This document shows positions 53,788 through 63,640 of a stretch of 64,000 nucleotides of DNA, piece by piece. Position numbers and translations under genes: made by a program. Source of the stretch: Phycisphaerae bacterium (GTDB lineage: Bacteria; Planctomycetota; Phycisphaerae; UBA1845; Fen-1342). How positions within the stretch are numbered: the first letter of the stretch is position 1; every line of letters begins with the position of its first letter. Location: assembly GCA_050115495.1 (NCBI GenBank), contig JASFQK010000007.1, positions 1 through 64,000 on the forward strand. Reading direction: 5' to 3'. Below the pieces are notes generated by a model that saw only the letters and a program-made list of their open reading frames with translations, was not told the DNA's origin and did not search any database.

Positions 53788-53839
53788 GACTAAGTAGTGT
53801 AGCCCTCCCCGCCAACCTCCGCCATTGAATCCACCCGGC

Positions 53840-54048
53840 GCCACTGGTGGCTTGCCCCGCGTGCCACTGGTAGCTTGCCCACCAGTGCTCGCCCCCCTAA
53901 CCTCCCCCCCACACAACGCTTACCGACCCCCAACCGCCTGCCCACCAATACCCCCCGGGGGCGATCACACCCCCTTCGCCGGGTGCCACTGGTGGCTTGC
54001 CCACCAGTGCCCCCCCGGTGGCGACCACACCCCCTCGCCGGGTACCAT
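53840..54048. repeat. Cluster of CACTGGTGGCTTGCCCACCAGTG palindromes and a ~38-bp direct repeat
   Basis: Copies at 53840-53857 (partial), 53861-53888 and 53981-54010; direct repeat 53951-53988 / 54011-54048. Confidence 0.8.
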
Positions 54049-56390: not shown

Positions 56391-59300
56391 ATGCTCGGGC
56401 ACACCATGATGGAACAACGAATGTCGCGCCTGTGGCTGCTGGGTGCCATATTGCTCGGTTCACCTGTGCTGGCCGACACACTCCTCGTACCGAGCCAGTA
56501 CCCGACCATCCAGGCTGCGATCGACGCGGCATGGCCCGGAGACGCAGTCGAAGTTGCCGACGGCACATACACAGGCGACGGGAACCGGGATCTCGACACC
56601 GCCGGCAAGGCGATCACCGTCCGCAGTGCGTCCGGTGATCCCGCCCTGTGCATCATCGATTGCGAGGGATCATCGAGTGAACATCACCGTGGCTTCCATT
56701 TCCACAGCGGCGAGACAGCCGCCACGATAGTAGACGGCATCACCATCTGCAATGGATACAACCACGGCGGTGGCGGCGTCTGCTGTGCCGAAGCCAGCAG
56801 CCCGACGCTCATCAACTGCAGAATCACGGACAACACTGCGACGCAAGCAGCCGCCGGCATCTACTGCTACGACGACAGCAGTCCGACCATCACCGACTGC
56901 ATGATCGCAAATAACACCGCGGGCCATTCAGGCGGCGGCATCTGCTGCCAAGGCGCCAGCAGCCCCACCATCACCAACTGCACGGTAAGGGCAAACACGA
57001 CGGACGCCTCCGGCGGCGGGATCTATTGCTCCGACCACTGCCACTTGACCATCATCGACTGCACGATCAGCGACAACTCACTTGGCACCAGTGGTGGCGG
57101 TGTCCACTGTCAGCTCTATAGCAGCCTCACAATGACCAACTGCACGATCGCGCACAACGCTGCCAGCAATGCCGGGGGCATTAGCTGCAGCGTGCATTCC
57201 GAAATGATGCTCACCAACTGCCTGATCACAGAAAACACCGCGGACCAGTATGGCGGCGGCGTCTTCGCGTCCGGCGACTGCGTGCTGGCCCACTGCACGA
57301 TCGCGAGGAATACCGCTGCGGGCGGGGGCGGTGTTCGTTGTGGTGTCGACGGCGCCACCCTGCTCAACTGCGTCATAAGAGACAACACGGTAACAGGCAA
57401 CGGCGGTGGCGCCCTCTGTATCGACAGCGATGCCATGTTCATCAATTGCGCGATTACAGGGAACACGGCAGAACACGGCGGCGGCATCTTCAGCGAAGAC
57501 AACCCGAGCCCGACGTTCATCAATTGCACGATCGCGGATAACACTGCGGATGACGGCGGCCTCTCCTGCAGTTGGGACAGCACCCCGATATTGACCAACT
57601 GCATCCTCTGGGGCAACTTACCGACGGAGGTTTACGTGTGGACGGGAGCCCCGGTTCTGACCTACTGCGATGTGCAGGGAGGATGGGCCGGTGAGGGCAA
57701 TACCGCCGTCGATCCGGTGTTCGTCGACCCCGTAAACGGCGACTACCGGATTTCCAGAGAGTCGCCGTGCATCGACGCAGCCAACAACCACGCCCTGCCT
57801 CCCGATGCGTTCGACCTCGACGACGATGGCGACACGGAAGAGCCAATCCCCCTCGATCTCGCCGGCCACCCCCGCCTCTTTGACGATCCGAACACGCAAG
57901 ACAGCGGTCTCGGCGAACCACCGCTCGCTGACCGAGGCGCCTACGAGTACCAGGGGCCGTTGACGCTCAACGTTCCAGAAGACTATGACACGATCCAGGC
58001 AGCGATCGATGGGGCGATCAACGGCGACGTCGTCACCGTCGAACTCGGCGTCTGGAGTGGCCCCGGCAACCGAGACCTGGATTGCCGCGGTAAGGCCATC
58101 ACCGTGCGCAGCATCGTCGGAAGCCCGACACTGTGTATCATCAACTGCGAGGGGTCGTGGAACGACCCCCACCGCGGCTTCCATTTCCACAGCGGCGAGA
58201 CTGCCGACACGGTCATAAGGGGCTTCACCATCCGCAATGGAGAAGCGGAGTTCGGCAGCGGCATCTGCTGCGAGGGCAGCAGCCCGACAATCAACCACTG
58301 CACGATCAAGGAAAACGGTTCGCTCAACTACCCAGGCGGCGGGCTCTATTGCACGGCCAGCAGTCCTGCGTTGACCCACTGCACCATCAGCTCAAACACG
58401 GCCTACACCGGCGGCGGCATCTACGGCTCGCACAGCAGCCCTGCATTGCACGAGTGCACCATTATTGGAAACACGGCGTACGACGACGGAGGCGGCATCT
58501 GCTGGTCGAACGGCGGTCCTGCGTTCACCGATTGCAGCATCACGGGAAACGTGGCCGGAAGCAACGGCGGCGGCTTGTATGCCTACGGTGCCAACCTCTC
58601 ATTGACGGACTGCACGATCAGTGCGAATGAGGCCTACGCCGGCGGCGGTCTCTATTGCGAGCATGCCTACCCGACGTTTACCCGCTGTACGGTCAGTGAT
58701 AACTCCGCCGATTCCTACGGTGGAGGTGTCTACTGCCTCTTGATCCACCCCACCTTCACCGACTGCACGGTCCGCTCGAATAGCGCTGGTGTCATGGGCG
58801 GCGGCGTGTATTGCCGGCAAAATGGCAGCCCCACCTTCACCGATTCGGAGATCATCGAGAACACGGCCGGCGGCGGTATCGTCTGTGAGTATCACTCCGA
58901 CCCAATCTTCTTCAACTGCACGATCGCCAGAAACGTCGGCGCGGTTGGCGGTGGCCTACACTGTTGGGAAGGATCCAACCCGGAGCTCACGGACTGCGCG
59001 ATCGCGGAAAACACGGCGGAATACGACGGCGGCGGCGTCTTCTGCACAACGGGCAGCAACCCGGTACTCACCAACTGCACGATCGCCGCCAATGTTGCCT
59101 CCACCGGCGCCGGCGGCGCGCTCTCCTGTGTGGAAGAAAGCAGCCCGACGTTCATGAATTGCCTGATCACCGAAAACTCGGCGTCGTCCGGCGGAGCGCT
59201 GCACTGCTGGATGGCCGACCCGACGTTCACCAATTGCACGATCGCCCTGAACACCGCAGGCTATGGGGGCGGGCTGCTCTGCGAGGAAATGAGCAGCCCG

Positions 59301-59834
59301 GTGCTGACCAACTGCATCCTGTGGGCCGACTCGCCGCACGAGATCTTCGTCTACTCCGGTACACCCGCCGTGACGTACTGCGACGTCCAGGGCGGCTGGC
59401 CCGGCGGAGGCAACATAGACGCCGACCCGCTGTTCCTCGCCGGGCCGGTCGGCTACTTCTATCTGAGCCATACCGCAGCCGGCCAACCGTTTGACAGTCC
59501 CTGTATCGACGGCGGCAATGACACCGCCGAGCACTACGGCCTGGCGACGTCAACGACCCGCCGCGACGAGGCTGTGGACACCGGCATCGTGGACGTCGGC
59601 TACCACTACCCGGTCACAGGCCAGCCGTTCGTGCATGGCGACTTCGACTACAACGGCAACCTGGACATGGAGGACTTCGGCGAATCCGTCTCCTACGCAA
59701 CGGGCCCCGCCCCGGATCCCCCGCACTGGCCGCCGATGTACGGGAACCCCCGCGGCAACATCGTCGACTTCGACGACGACGGCGACGTCGACCTGTTCGA
59801 TTGGAGCTGCTTCCAGTCGGCGTTCGCGCCGTAG
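56391..59834 (+). CDS. Secreted right-handed parallel beta-helix repeat protein, two tandem modules plus C-terminal dockerin-like domain
   Basis: RBS GAGGAGG; VP..Y.TIQAAID twice; many GGG(I/L/V)xC...PT(I/F)TNC(T)I..N repeats; GDFDYNG...DFDDDGDVD. Confidence 0.88.
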   Translation: MLGHTMMEQRMSRLWLLGAILLGSPVLADTLLVPSQYPTIQAAIDAAWPGDAVEVADGTYTGDGNRDLDTAGKAITVRSASGDPALCIIDCEGSSSEHHRGFHFHSGETAATIVDGITICNGYNHGGGGVCCAEASSPTLINCRITDNTATQAAAGIYCYDDSSPTITDCMIANNTAGHSGGGICCQGASSPTITNCTVRANTTDASGGGIYCSDHCHLTIIDCTISDNSLGTSGGGVHCQLYSSLTMTNCTIAHNAASNAGGISCSVHSEMMLTNCLITENTADQYGGGVFASGDCVLAHCTIARNTAAGGGGVRCGVDGATLLNCVIRDNTVTGNGGGALCIDSDAMFINCAITGNTAEHGGGIFSEDNPSPTFINCTIADNTADDGGLSCSWDSTPILTNCILWGNLPTEVYVWTGAPVLTYCDVQGGWAGEGNTAVDPVFVDPVNGDYRISRESPCIDAANNHALPPDAFDLDDDGDTEEPIPLDLAGHPRLFDDPNTQDSGLGEPPLADRGAYEYQGPLTLNVPEDYDTIQAAIDGAINGDVVTVELGVWSGPGNRDLDCRGKAITVRSIVGSPTLCIINCEGSWNDPHRGFHFHSGETADTVIRGFTIRNGEAEFGSGICCEGSSPTINHCTIKENGSLNYPGGGLYCTASSPALTHCTISSNTAYTGGGIYGSHSSPALHECTIIGNTAYDDGGGICWSNGGPAFTDCSITGNVAGSNGGGLYAYGANLSLTDCTISANEAYAGGGLYCEHAYPTFTRCTVSDNSADSYGGGVYCLLIHPTFTDCTVRSNSAGVMGGGVYCRQNGSPTFTDSEIIENTAGGGIVCEYHSDPIFFNCTIARNVGAVGGGLHCWEGSNPELTDCAIAENTAEYDGGGVFCTTGSNPVLTNCTIAANVASTGAGGALSCVEESSPTFMNCLITENSASSGGALHCWMADPTFTNCTIALNTAGYGGGLLCEEMSSPVLTNCILWADSPHEIFVYSGTPAVTYCDVQGGWPGGGNIDADPLFLAGPVGYFYLSHTAAGQPFDSPCIDGGNDTAEHYGLATSTTRRDEAVDTGIVDVGYHYPVTGQPFVHGDFDYNGNLDMEDFGESVSYATGPAPDPPHWPPMYGNPRGNIVDFDDDGDVDLFDWSCFQSAFAP

Positions 59835-59898
59835 TGGGTGCGGCGGCCCGTGCCCGCCAATTCCCCCGGCACCCACCCGCGGGCACGGCCCGGCCTAC
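59831..59898. repeat. REP-like palindrome pair between convergent genes
   Basis: GGCGGCCCGTGCCCGCC ... GCGGGCACGGCCCGGCCTAC; related copies near 60599-60664 and 62153-62175. Confidence 0.65.
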
Positions 59899-60158
59899 TT
59901 CTTTGTGGTCCGTTTCGCCTTCGCTTTGGGCTTCGGCGGGTCGTCGATCAGTTCAAGCAGATTGCCGAAGTCGACACCGAGAGCGCGGCATATCTTTTCG
60001 AGGGTCGCAATCGTCGCGTTGTAGCCTGGCTGGCTTCCCATGATCTGCAGCGTGCCATGGGCGATACCGGTTCGCTCCGCGAGCAGCTTGTATGTCATGC
60101 GCTCGCCAGTTCGTCGCCGGTAAGCCTCCATAGCCTCCCTCAGCTTGATTGCGACCAC
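59895..60158 (-). CDS. XRE/Cro-C1-type HTH transcriptional regulator
   Basis: MTYKLLAERTGIAHGTL...TIATLEKICRALGVDFGNLLE. Confidence 0.85.
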   Translation of the reverse strand: MVAIKLREAMEAYRRRTGERMTYKLLAERTGIAHGTLQIMGSQPGYNATIATLEKICRALGVDFGNLLELIDDPPKPKAKAKRTTKK

Positions 60159-60205
60159 GTCTTATCCACCAAGAAAGAAATCATAGCTGATAATTAAGAT
60201 TCTGC

Positions 60206-60234
60206 TTGACACCGAGCAGACATAGATGTATAAT
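60206..60234 (+). promoter_or_regulatory. Perfect-consensus sigma70 promoter
   Basis: TTGACA (60206-60211), 17-bp spacer, TATAAT (60229-60234), in an AT-rich patch divergent from the HTH gene. Confidence 0.85.
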
Positions 60235-60240
60235 ACCGTC

Positions 60241-60545
60241 ATTAGCAGAGGCTCGGTAACCGCTCGCCGACGCGGGGTGTTAAAGACGCGCCCTACGGCG
60301 TGAACCTCGGACGGCCGGCGGTATATATGCCCTGGCAGGCAAACGGTCACTCCAGCAGGCACGCTTACAGCAACGGCGTGATGCGGGTTCATGCTCACCT
60401 CAGCCAAGGCAGCCTCGCCCGGGACAGTGTCCGCGCTTATCATAGCGGGCGCTGCCCGGTGCGCGGGGTCGCGAGGGTGAGCTTGACCGTTTGCCCGTGA
60501 CCTTTAGCGCATCGGGTGGCGCCCGTTTCCTTTTGGTGCCATCAG
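60241..60545 (+). ncRNA. Candidate structured non-coding RNA or long structured leader (family not recognised)
   Basis: Begins at the predicted TSS; nested stems 60277-85/60502-10, 60338-49/60484-95 (12 bp perfect), 60393-401/60473-82, 60419-34/60445-59; 3' hairpin 60515-23/60535-43; G-U pairs favour the + strand. Confidence 0.55.
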
Positions 60546-60720
60546 CTTTCGACGTTCCGCCGTCCCCAACGGCGTCGCCACCCCTGCGCGCCAATGCCGG
60601 GCGGGCCGTGCCCGCCAATCGCGAATCCGTCCGAACACCCGCGGCGGCCACGGCCCACCCTACATGGTGCGGAGGCAACGCCGCGGTCGAAGACCGGGGT
60701 CATGGCGTGGAGGAGTGCCC

Positions 60721-61254
60721 ATGCTCGACCGGATCCATACCCGCGCCGGCGACGGCCTGATGCTGACCTTCCCCTACGTCAGTGGCAACGACAACGTCCC
60801 CGCCACACTCGAATTCTGGACGGCCCACGTCGCCCGCGACCTCCTGCAACTCGCCGTCCACTTCCGCGCCCTCGGCATCCTGGGCGAAATCCCCGGCGGA
60901 GCCCGCTATCAAGGCCTCGACTACGGTCGCGGTAAAGACCTCCCCGAAAGCGCCCCCCCGTGCTTCTGGCTGCGCCCCGTCGACCGCCAGACGCGGTTGA
61001 ACGTTCTGGCCGAGTGCCTGCGGCGATTGAACGCACGCGAGGTGTTCACCCGCATTCGTGAAACACACGACTACCGCCCGCAGACGCTGCCGGGCAAGTG
61101 GACCGCCTACCTGGACCGGCACGCCGCGATTAAGGGCGGGTTGCTGACGGTGGTCGCCTGTTGCATCGACATACTGGTCGTCGAGCCGGGGTTGGAGGAA
61201 ATCGAGCTGCGGGCGACGTGGTGGCAACGGTGGTGGGCACACACGAACGAATAG
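60721..61254 (+). CDS. Hypothetical protein (177 aa)
   Basis: RBS GGAGGAG before ATG; no family recognised. Confidence 0.7.
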   Translation: MLDRIHTRAGDGLMLTFPYVSGNDNVPATLEFWTAHVARDLLQLAVHFRALGILGEIPGGARYQGLDYGRGKDLPESAPPCFWLRPVDRQTRLNVLAECLRRLNAREVFTRIRETHDYRPQTLPGKWTAYLDRHAAIKGGLLTVVACCIDILVVEPGLEEIELRATWWQRWWAHTNE

Positions 61255-61315: not shown

Positions 61316-62035
61316 ATGACCGCACCGACCACACGCCACGACAACGAAAACGCCGCAGAACGGGCCGTGCCCGCCGGCGGCGACACGCCGGAAACGCCCG
61401 GCCCTGCGCCGACCGACACGGACGCCTTCGCCCTGACGGCGTTGCTCCACGATCTCCAACCACACCCCGAACTCGACCTGCCGACGATGGCCTATCATCT
61501 CCATCAATCCGACGCCACCGCCGCCGACGGCTACGGCCACGCGGCCATCAACGAGGCCCGTTCCGCTCTCGAAGCCCTCATCGTCAGCATCGCCCGCACC
61601 ATCTGCCACGGCGTGACAGATAGCACCGGTCTTCGCCTCCGCGAACGTATCCAGGCCGGCAGCACGTTCCGCACACACCGCCGCTGTCTGATGGACGCCG
61701 GCTTCATCGACATCGACGAAAACGAACTGCTGCAATACGTCTACAGCATAGCCAGCGCCCGAGGCAGCCATTACGGCGTAACCGACGACGCCTGGACCCG
61801 CCTGGCCCGGCGAATCGTCTTCATCGTCGGCCAGCACTTCACACAGCGTTACACCATCTGGAAGCAAAACGGCCGCCAGCCGGCGTCGCTTCCCACCAAC
61901 CACCCCCAGCCGGCGTCACGCTCCTGGCCCGCGCGCCTCCTCGCCACCCTCCTGCCCCGCCGACAACCACCCCCAACGCCCCCCATCTCCACCAGGAGAT
62001 CAACCCGCCGCAAACGCGCGAACGCACGCACGTAG
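61316..62035 (+). CDS. Hypothetical alpha-helical protein, weak resemblance to HEPN/Abi_C-like domains
   Basis: RBS GAGGA; AAINEARSALEAL ... SIASARGSH pattern; disordered termini. Confidence 0.6.
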   Translation: MTAPTTRHDNENAAERAVPAGGDTPETPGPAPTDTDAFALTALLHDLQPHPELDLPTMAYHLHQSDATAADGYGHAAINEARSALEALIVSIARTICHGVTDSTGLRLRERIQAGSTFRTHRRCLMDAGFIDIDENELLQYVYSIASARGSHYGVTDDAWTRLARRIVFIVGQHFTQRYTIWKQNGRQPASLPTNHPQPASRSWPARLLATLLPRRQPPPTPPISTRRSTRRKRANART

Positions 62036-62049
62036 GGCGCCGCGCGGCG

Positions 62050-62494
62050 GTCGACGTCGGCCACGGGGGGCCGACGCTACGGGACGGCTGGCACGGAGAC
62101 CGGCCGCTACGGAAGACGTCCGACACGCCGCAAACGCGCGAATCGACAAACATAGGGCGGCCCGTGCCCGCCAATAGGCAACAGAACCCGCCAGAATCCG
62201 CCAGAACCTAGCATTCCTAGGATTCCCCTTTGCTTCTCTCCCGAAGCGCGTCTATCTTTCACGTGCTCACGCAGTTCCCGGGCCCGCCTTGACGGACCCT
62301 CGGCCTTCGGAGCCAGGACGTCGATCGAAACGTTGTAGCACGGCTAACCCCGTGTGGTCGGCGACCAAACCCCGAAGACGGATCGTCTCGTGACCCGTGC
62401 GTCGGCGGAGCACCTTGCCGATCGTCGTCGGCCTGTAGCGGCCGGTCTCCGTGCCGGCCGTCCGTAGCGTCGGCCCCCCGTGGCCGACGTCGAC
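62050..62494. repeat. Pair of ~60-bp inverted repeats built from GTAG-type REP-like units
   Basis: 62050-62110 is the reverse complement of 62435-62494 apart from one substitution and one indel. Confidence 0.85.
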
Positions 62495-62707
62495 TGCCGG
62501 CGACCGTTCACCTCGGTGAACACGGCAACGGTGCTCAGAGGACGTCGCTCGCATCGGCGAACGCCAGGACGCGGCTGCCTGCACGGAACCGCCCCCTCGC
62601 GGTCACTCAGCGCAGCACCGGAGCGGATCTTTGACAATCGAGTATGCCCCATTCGCCGCGCGGGCGGCCGATCCAGGACGCCCGCGCGCCAGAGCGAAAG
62701 CGGACAC

Positions 62708-62870
62708 AGGGGCAAAGGGGCAGAGGAGCAAAGGAGCAGAGGGAGGGCGATCGGCCCCCGACCGCTCTGCTGCCTCGGCACTCTGAGTGGAGCCGAAGGG
62801 GCTGCCTCCGGCTCAGGGCTCAAGGCTCACGGCTTGTGGCTGACGGCTGACGGCTGATGGCTGATGGCTT
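62708..62870. repeat. Short tandem repeats: 8-mer GG(G/A)GCA(A/G)A and 7-mer GGCTGA(C/T)
   Basis: ggggcaaa-ggggcaga-ggagcaaa-ggagcaga; ggctgac-ggctgac-ggctgat-ggctgat. Confidence 0.7.
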
Positions 62871-62914
62871 CGCGAAGACGTCCGGTATGGAGCTCGGACG
62901 CTACGGCGTTCGCC

Positions 62915-62944
62915 GCACTGGTGGACAAGCCACCAGTGGCACCC
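62915..62944. repeat. Further copy of the CACTGGTGG...CCACCAGTG palindrome
   Basis: GCACTGGTGGACAAGCCACCAGTGGCACCC is the reverse complement of 53981-54010 with one mismatch. Confidence 0.8.
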
Positions 62945-63010
62945 AGTGTTCGCCGGCGGTGGCACGCGAGTTGCCGAGCGCGCAACGCCTCGTTGCCTCG
63001 TTGCCTCCCC

Positions 63011-63640
63011 CTACTCAGCCCACAACCCGCCCGTCTCGCGCAGCCACGCCACAATGCAGTCGGCGGCGTCGGCGACGTTGTCGTGCGAAATGTCCAGCTC
63101 CAGCGTCGGCAGGAGCGAACTCGCCGCCAGTTGGCGGAGGGCCTCCTGCTCGGCGATGAAAACCGACAGATCGTCGTACTGCGACGGGCGGCCGGAGATC
63201 TTGAGGCGGGCGGCGCGGGCTGTCGGGAAGGAGGCCGGTTCGCGCGTGCAGAGCACCAGGCGGAAGCCCAGGGCCGAGAGCCGCTCTTCCAGCCAGGTGA
63301 AGTCGAACGCCGTATCGTGCACGCGCTGCTGGTAGGCCTGCGTGGACAGGTGGAAGCGATCGACAATCCACGAGTAATACGGCAGCAGCTCGAACAGGTG
63401 CAGCCACGTGCGGTACGTCTCCATCGCCCGCTCGGCCTCATCGGGGGCGAAGTTGATGAGGCCGCGGCCCCACGGCGTGTTCGTAAACCCGCACCACTCG
63501 GCGGACACCAGCGGCGAGTGATAGCGGTAACGGCGTGGCCCGACGAACCCCGGATGCTCGTTCAGGCGGAAGGCGATCTCCGTCTTGAGCGTCAGCCGCG
63601 TGCCTTCGAGGATGATCTTCGGGCAGAGTTTCGACCCCAT
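63011..63640 (-). CDS. Hypothetical protein, NMP/thymidylate-kinase-like fold with degenerate P-loop
   Basis: KIILEGTRLTLKT and WIVDRFHLS resemble dTMP-kinase motifs; directly downstream of glgP. Confidence 0.6.
   Translation of the reverse strand: MGSKLCPKIILEGTRLTLKTEIAFRLNEHPGFVGPRRYRYHSPLVSAEWCGFTNTPWGRGLINFAPDEAERAMETYRTWLHLFELLPYYSWIVDRFHLSTQAYQQRVHDTAFDFTWLEERLSALGFRLVLCTREPASFPTARAARLKISGRPSQYDDLSVFIAEQEALRQLAASSLLPTLELDISHDNVADAADCIVAWLRETGGLWAE

Follow-up and report, generated by a model that had tools for sequence, protein, structure and literature searches.

A two-state RNA with copy-specific guide and target segments, very probably an attenuator, ahead of a HEPN-like gene in a Phycisphaerae bacterium

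The DNA analysed (the window) comprises the 64,000 nucleotides at positions 1-64,000 of contig JASFQK010000007.1, + strand, of the Phycisphaerae bacterium assembly GCA_050115495.1. It contains a module whose features are listed in Table 1. A sigma70-type promoter, from which a promoter scan predicts transcription to start at about 60241, stands back to back with the gene of a small HTH_26 protein, the likely regulator of that promoter. A structured RNA and two open reading frames, ORF A and the HEPN-like ORF B, follow downstream. This is the usual order in the copies of the module: a divergent regulator or small gene, a sigma70-type promoter, the RNA, one or two ORFs A and ORF B. Homologues of the HTH gene adjoin 10/15 copies of the RNA in this genome and 14/16 other aligned copies. 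The divergent gene in this genome is of the HTH_26 type in 10/15 copies, another XRE protein in two and a small ORF without Pfam match in three. A promoter-like site with at least 9/12 consensus positions was located upstream in 22/29 copies, against 4% of shuffled sequences, and the copies with such a promoter have a leader of 27-109 nt.

Table 1. Features of the module and its surroundings (positions in the window).
Feature	Position	Strand	Remarks
Short palindromic repeat flanking the module	59842..59861, 60600-60619, 62156-62175	+	repeat family D18
Divergent 87-aa Cro/C1-type HTH gene	59895..60158	-	Pfam HTH_26, E 2.5e-11
Inverted repeat across the -35 box, candidate operator	60201..60220		6-bp arms
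Sigma70-type promoter	60206..60234	+	12/12 consensus, 17-nt spacer
Copy-specific 5' leader	60241..60327	+	z -1.10; no match in other copies
Guide module	60328..60411	+	closing helix 60328-36/60403-11; arms 60338-49, 60393-401; variable hairpin 60351-87
Antiterminator helix 60413-34/60445-68	60413..60468	+	occupies 5' strand of long hairpin
Long hairpin 60445-73/60496-526, 29 bp, likely intrinsic terminator	60445..60526	+	loop 60474-95 = guide target
U-rich tract directly 3' of long hairpin, end of conserved RNA	60526..60534	+	at least 5 U in 9 nt in 29/30 copies
Segment able to pair with 60515-23 after read-through	60535..60543	+	mainly in copies of this genome
ORF A, 177 aa, helical	60721..61254	+	conserved in module, long and short forms (alignments A4, A5)
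ORF B, 239 aa, predicted HEPN/Abi_C-like fold	61316..62035	+	51 homologues

Comparison with five genomes of the same genus placed glgB and glgP next to each other in G005, with glgP absent from the fetched stretch in the other four; here the two genes are separated by 7.5 kb containing the module. The gene of a 1147-aa protein (56391-59834, +) with a signal-peptide-like start and many beta-helix/PMP repeats (Pfam Beta_helix, Chlam_PMP) falls inside the same insertion and has no counterpart between glgB and glgP of G005. Also inside it, a 209-aa ORF (63011-63640, -) gave a weak thymidylate-kinase-like match (E 0.002). The D18 palindromic repeat flanking the module is presumably REP-like. Several short-palindrome repeat families, with 50-150 genome copies each, occur in the window at 62045-62950 and 53834-54015. 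Short palindromic repeats could be mobilised by Y1 transposases, for which six matches were found elsewhere in the genome; none lies beside a copy of the RNA in this genome.

ORF A gave no Pfam or PADLOC match and no usable Atlas or fold match; with its model (pLDDT 88.7) the best structural Z was only 6.5. In the fold search with the ORF B model (pLDDT 88.3), HEPN domains took VIA ranks 1, 3, 6 and 7, the top match having a Z of 9.5 (rmsd 4.5, 119 aligned), which is under the safe level for helical bundles. Foldseek returned HEPN at E 0.16, the Atlas search pointed to an Abi_C cluster (0.90) and no solved relative was found by sequence. HEPN ribonucleases carry the motif R-X4-6-H. In the 48 ORF B sequences compared, one His is invariant and is preceded by a consensus Ser at five and a consensus Lys at three residues; no Arg is conserved, and with the Arg missing the motif is absent from this set. 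The same 48 members gave no Pfam match to Abi_2 at E≤0.1. Neighbouring genes of the module are sometimes of defence type, namely PD-T7-1 (L036), AbiTii (C56) and ThsB TIR (L033), and many others are ordinary.

An initial annotation, made from the letters of the window, had proposed an unrecognised multi-stem RNA at 60241-60545. On the + strand this interval folded better than shuffled controls (z -2.87, 1/100 shuffles equally good); the - strand gave z -1.23. The conserved RNA is 60328-60534 (z -3.10, 0/200 shuffles equally good). The core had been placed correctly and the 5' end set too wide, as the first 87 nt lie outside the conserved part and fold no better than shuffles. Because this leader is shuffle-like and absent from other copies, two of the proposed side hairpins (60289-300 and 60314-36) are unique to this copy and not conserved parts; the third (60360-80) occupies a slot in which 30/30 copies have a hairpin stable by 5 kcal/mol or more. 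The annotation had seen no hallmark of a known family, and no hit that would remove the novelty appeared: Rfam gave no match on the RNA in the window at gathering score, nor in 59850-60750 at E≤10, and across 16 loci the sole overlaps at E≤10 were sub-threshold miRNA hairpin models. A tRNA/tmRNA search found none. A surface-level search of the literature showed no earlier description of this RNA. The structured RNA is real, uncatalogued and selected on the + strand. Beside two other copies of the module (L004 and L006; G000:C8 and C25), Acido-Lenti-1 (RF01687) matches that pass the gathering score are clustered in either orientation and look like a repeat element.

Fifteen copies of the core RNA were counted in this genome and 17 further full copies elsewhere, the latter found by DNA profile within ORF B loci. 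The ORF B profile matched 28 metagenome loci and 4/400 genomes of the class, and one ORF B homologue was labelled Planctomycetes by its source. Of the 21 metagenome loci that extend 1400 nt or more upstream of ORF B, 15 carry a full RNA. A DNA search of 40 relatives did not find the RNA, giving one 27-nt downstream match only, nor was it found in 150 genomes of the phylum and 71 other genomes of the family (sets that overlap, with many incomplete genomes). It occurs twice in G279, a member of another family, and its spread is therefore patchy. None of 12 tyrosine-integrase matches in the genome lies beside a copy, the nearest on this contig being about 95 kb away. Genes for a Mu-like gpT head protein, an rve integrase core with its AAA partner and a resolvase lie at most 4 kb from three metagenome copies (L031:5989-6702, L045:4702-8027 and L046:3861-4277). 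Viral contigs contained no match for ORF B, the RNA scaffold or the target of this copy, and a scan of genome contigs with a single protein yielded one weak unrelated locus.

Pairing was assessed in alignment A3, whose 30 rows (several of them close kin) are 14/15 copies from this genome and 16/17 others; C32, cut by a contig end, and L032, also cut, were left out. All ten strings listed for the nested stems in the initial annotation were present where it had put them. In its 12-bp stem 60338-49/60484-95, 9/11 counted pairs change on both sides among the 30 copies. The stem 60393-401/60473-82 also stood, at least six Watson-Crick pairs being formed with the own partner in 19/23 copies (after removal of seven near-duplicate code types) and in 3.4% of the combinations with a partner from another copy. 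The inner stems are paired in 97-98% of cells in the 30 copies, though nearly invariant, and the antiterminator helix reaches the same 97-98% with both-side change in 1/19 pairs. Because they hardly vary, these inner helices are conserved and not proven by covariation. The G-U preference noticed on the + strand was recovered as 218 G-U against 11 A-C cells in one fold and 97 against 8 in the other. The proposed outermost stem (60277-85/60502-10) found no support, with a pair probability of at most 0.04.

Beyond those stems two switch helices were found. One is the closing helix 60328-36/60403-11, with both-side change in 7/9 pairs and pairing in 96% of cells; the other is the 29-bp hairpin 60445-73/60496-526, in which 99.3% of cells pair, five pairs vary on both sides and seven on one. 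A pseudoknot reading of the former was dropped as sterically unlikely. The idea of a switch or attenuator was right, and the helices said to alternate were the wrong ones: the alternative pairing with 60261-60270 had a pair probability of 0.00, and that with 60535-43 is likely (p 0.89) but only after read-through, with at least eight pairs in 12/30 copies, every one of them in this genome. What actually alternates are the nested fold already described (fold R: guide arm 1 with 60484-95 plus the inner helices) and a covarying fold with the 29-bp hairpin at the U tract (fold T: closing helix plus hairpin). Fold T is 98.6% paired, dropping to 37-50% when slid, and fold R 97.9%, in each case with 0/500 shuffles as high. 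Each surpasses every one of the 500 shuffles in covariation score as well as in percent paired, a control that ignores relatedness among the copies, and both collapse when slid. They exclude each other because strands 60445-68 are common to both. The energy gap between them is at most 5 kcal/mol in 18/30 copies and 1.5 in this copy; the largest gaps stem partly from forced pairs on misaligned rows. Conservation of the scaffold may be due only to pairing in the two folds. The RNA is very probably a two-state attenuator of one polarity or the other.

Two hairpins end at the U tract. The long hairpin has -59.5 to -69.1 kcal/mol across the 30 copies; a small one at 60513-25, using the same U tract, has -6.3 kcal/mol in 19, -7.3 in 1 and -2.3 in 10. 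Conservation stops at the U tract (60526-60534), which is often interrupted (4-7 U of 9). Given the far stronger long hairpin at that tract, fold T would be the terminated and fold R the read-through state. The arrangement with the small hairpin as terminator and the long helix as antiterminator was given up in view of the energies and the conservation pattern.

Transcripts were looked for in a wetland metatranscriptome run. One contig is identical to 60262-60404 (depth 6.8), and a second shows exactly the 11 interior differences that mark copy C42a, and runs past the U tract. In the same run the HTH gene and ORF A were uncovered and beyond ORF B only the repeat-rich end was covered, absence being no proof of silence. 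These two low-depth contigs from one run have neither ends nor a control region and, being unstranded as well, are taken as a hint only. They also bear on the proposal that the element is a single-stranded DNA structure for moving the module and not an RNA switch. The G-U bias would also suit a single DNA strand, where it reads as G-T, and the module is multi-copy and patchy. This explanation is nevertheless very improbable, since promoter-like sites precede the element in 22/29 copies and U tracts follow it in 29/30, it sits mid-module and not at the module ends, and contigs from an RNA library cover it.

Folding of growing transcripts was approximated by equilibrium folding of prefixes, not kinetics. 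The guide module and antiterminator helix form first, and the guide module folds alone (closing helix p 0.94). Once the target has emerged, guide-target pairing has p >0.5 in 30/30 copies, and shortly before the U tract in 27/30. When the guide was held unpaired, the long hairpin nucleated at its top and reached 0.99. Holding the target unpaired likewise gave 0.99, because the model cannot represent a rigid trans duplex; it is thus blind to which half acts in trans. In the full-length transcript the long hairpin already averages 0.67. On this model, transcription would read through unless the guide is occupied, in which case it would terminate. A leader peptide was considered and discarded, because stops or frameshifts break the frame in numerous copies and the AUG is missing from this one.

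With the opposite polarity or agent, the guide module would be a released small RNA that activates read-through in trans as IsrK does, or guide-target pairing would free a terminating hairpin at 60513-25. The independent folding of the guide module (closing helix p 0.94) suits such a role, the small hairpin with its U tract passes a terminator scan, the RNA contig of this copy spans leader and guide, and IsrK offers a precedent (PMC4825925). We regard this as quite unlikely, as the small hairpin has only -2.3 kcal/mol in 10/30 copies, no U tract follows the guide module for its release in any of the 30, and the guide already binds its target in cis, so that a trans activator would add little.

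Among the 14 co-resident copies aligned, scaffold identity is 0.91 and identity of the guide/target code 0.49, with a maximum of 0.71. Own guide-target duplexes average -31.6 kcal/mol against -17.1 for non-own ones, and 12/14 guides prefer their own target. The exceptions are C42a and C51a, in which guides mismatch targets (L002, G000:C42:897-1126, and L009, G000:C51:528-740). C42a and C10 have identical second guide arms, which points to recombination among copies. A given code turns up again in other samples together with the same HTH type. For the type sampled best, the code is 0.93-1.0 identical across samples and the hairpin between the arms falls to 0.55-0.70; for three other type pairs the values are 0.73-0.86 for the code against 0.59-0.63 for the hairpin. 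Being more constant within a type than the adjacent hairpin, the code is not a freely drifting helix. This argues for a code kept as a specificity group would keep it, though a strongly constrained cis helix could behave alike. Among co-resident pairs with similar HTH proteins 0/2 share a code, against 5/19 and 6/13 in the other comparisons (the rows throughout not being independent), a thin indication that co-resident relatives are pushed to different codes.

The only perfect genomic match of each target lies in its own leader. For this copy's target, the genome holds no second site at up to three mismatches, and no exact match was found in viral contigs. The guide therefore seems to be aimed at its own transcript. 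The U-turn motif is defined as YUNR; it is present in the target loop of 23/30 copies, this one included, a count with no chance control.

A cis-only attenuator would use the same folds, with the speed of the polymerase, a ribosome or one of the proteins ORF A and ORF B as the switch, and its codes would diverge solely by compensatory drift and recombination. In its favour, a single molecule could form all the observed pairs, the two folds differ little in energy and an AUG stands at the foot of the long hairpin in 26/30 copies. It appears unlikely in view of a code that is steadier within types than the adjacent hairpin, of co-resident copies no two of which exceed 0.71 code identity, and of an AUG whose frame is not kept and which this copy lacks.

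The reading we prefer, at somewhat better than an even chance, is an attenuator with default read-through, which a hairpin RNA released from its own transcript likely shuts off in trans. The guide module would fold first with its two arms exposed and would pair with the target (60474-95) as this emerges, preserving the antiterminator helix, keeping the 29-bp hairpin from nucleating and letting the polymerase reach ORF A and the HEPN-like ORF B. Terminated or processed transcripts would leave a hairpin RNA of about 85 nt with the target in its loop. This could bind the guide arms of new transcripts with the same code and free their target, after which the long hairpin would zip up to the U tract and transcription would stop. 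On entering a naive cell the module would be expressed in a burst and would then silence itself, each copy acting on itself alone, and co-resident copies would need different codes. The divergent HTH protein likely adds control at the promoter. No mobility gene that could account for such an arrival was found next to a copy. A wider reading is possible, though on the doubtful side: a family of small, phage-free chromosomal modules with self-encoded RNA passwords as immunity groups, in which ORF A and the HEPN-like gene are expressed once, upon arrival, and the module then locks itself by means of its own terminator hairpin RNA, the HEPN-like protein perhaps cutting the leader to set this RNA free.

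The linkage to ORF B, with a full RNA in 15/21 metagenome loci with at least 1400 nt upstream, could also mean an RNA antitoxin or guide for the HEPN-like protein, after the manner of AbiF or type III toxin-antitoxin systems, or a guide against foreign sequence. According to 10.1101/2025.04.15.648962, the AbiF RNA RCd22 has two conserved motifs and neutralises the toxin by binding it directly. On that account the systems are alike in a structured RNA tied to a HEPN-type gene, and defence-type neighbours occur here; they differ in the variable code and the pair of folds seen in the present RNA, and in the lack of an Abi_2 match for ORF B. Such a role is improbable, given targets whose only perfect genomic match lies in the own leader, a target in this copy with no exact match in viral contigs, 6/21 loci with ORF B and no full RNA, and ORF A placed between RNA and ORF B.

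In P4, seqA pairs with seqB in cis, and C4 RNAs have two short variable recognition segments. According to PMC4825925, the CI RNA of P4 is processed from the leader, is antisense on the same strand and causes termination via seqA and seqC. The present RNA likewise has complementary modules on one strand of one leader, with guide (60338-401) and target (60474-95) both +, and a similar predicted control by premature termination with a structured module upstream and a hairpin of about 80 nt downstream. P4 differs in having two flanking targets (seqA upstream, seqC downstream) against one target per copy here. The gene content of P4-like satellites is treated in PMC8628076; Pfam scans of selected neighbours of the copies named no such genes. 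The copies here have no P4 satellite genes or integrase beside them, would control ORF A and a HEPN-like gene, and have 15 co-resident codes.

C4 motifs are catalogued in PMC2864571 and PMC5737381. C4 (RF01695), c4-2 (RF02944) and c4-a1b1 share with the present RNA the same-strand antisense logic and the two variable recognition segments. What sets the present RNA apart from them is a target placed within a terminator-like hairpin of 29 bp, as its loop; nor was the RNA found in viral contigs. The best score in the genome was 20.8 bits for C4 (threshold 45) and 15.8 for c4-2 (threshold 41), both at no copy, and no copy matched either model at E≤10. Because there is no C4 or c4-2 score, one target instead of two and no satellite genes, the RNA is not a member of P4, C4 or c4-2; by analogy, a P4-like logic would be the best fit, which we hold with slightly more confidence than doubt.

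IsrK of Salmonella Gifsy-1 is a seqA homologue that activates its own long transcript (PMC4825925). It resembles the present RNA in that its 5' part is complementary to a stretch further down the same transcript, and in switching between two folds; it differs in its own terminator and in activating translation in trans, whereas here no U tract follows the guide in the 30 copies and the switch acts on a terminator-like hairpin. For the attenuation system of pIP501, PMC4981023 describes RNAIII, transcribed from the opposite strand, together with CopR. Antisense-controlled attenuation combined with a small repressor, a U-turn target loop and sequence-specific groups are common to both; RNAIII differs in its strand, and no replication gene follows here. 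A scan of 59800-60800 for the opposite-strand antisense RNA expected of a pIP501/pT181 attenuator found no minus-strand promoter-like site of at least 9/12, weaker promoters such as that of the HTH gene itself escaping it.

Immunity by same-strand antisense RNA has been described for individual systems in a few proteobacterial phages and satellites. Fifteen copies with a near-fixed scaffold and different codes in one genome offer a test matrix for the evolution of specificity and for action in trans. Because they are short and modular, the codes could serve as independent RNA regulators of transcription, and the fifteen would, if the wider reading is true, form a natural library of RNA transcription switches that work independently of one another. 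An RNA logic tied to an unusual HEPN-like gene with no phage raises the question of what spreads and keeps the module.

Some copies deviate from the usual layout. L009 and L010 (G000:C51:119-1500) are tandem HTH-promoter-RNA units with different codes ahead of one ORF A. In L092 (G279:C123, RNA at locus 1510-1700) the 3' strand of the terminator is cut off, and the RNA is overlapped on the other strand by a 518-aa AAA_15/AAA_21 ATPase ORF. Three loci (L044, L055 and L030) have a different XRE gene with ORF A and ORF B and no full RNA; L044 and L055 contained no RNA remnant and L030 a 3' fragment. Extra partial copies of the antiterminator segment alone lie between the RNA and ORF A at L049:1505-1760, L042:278-341 and L047:690-755. 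Translation of L042:5350-6013 gave one short peptide repeated several times, which suggests a CRISPR-like DNA repeat array.
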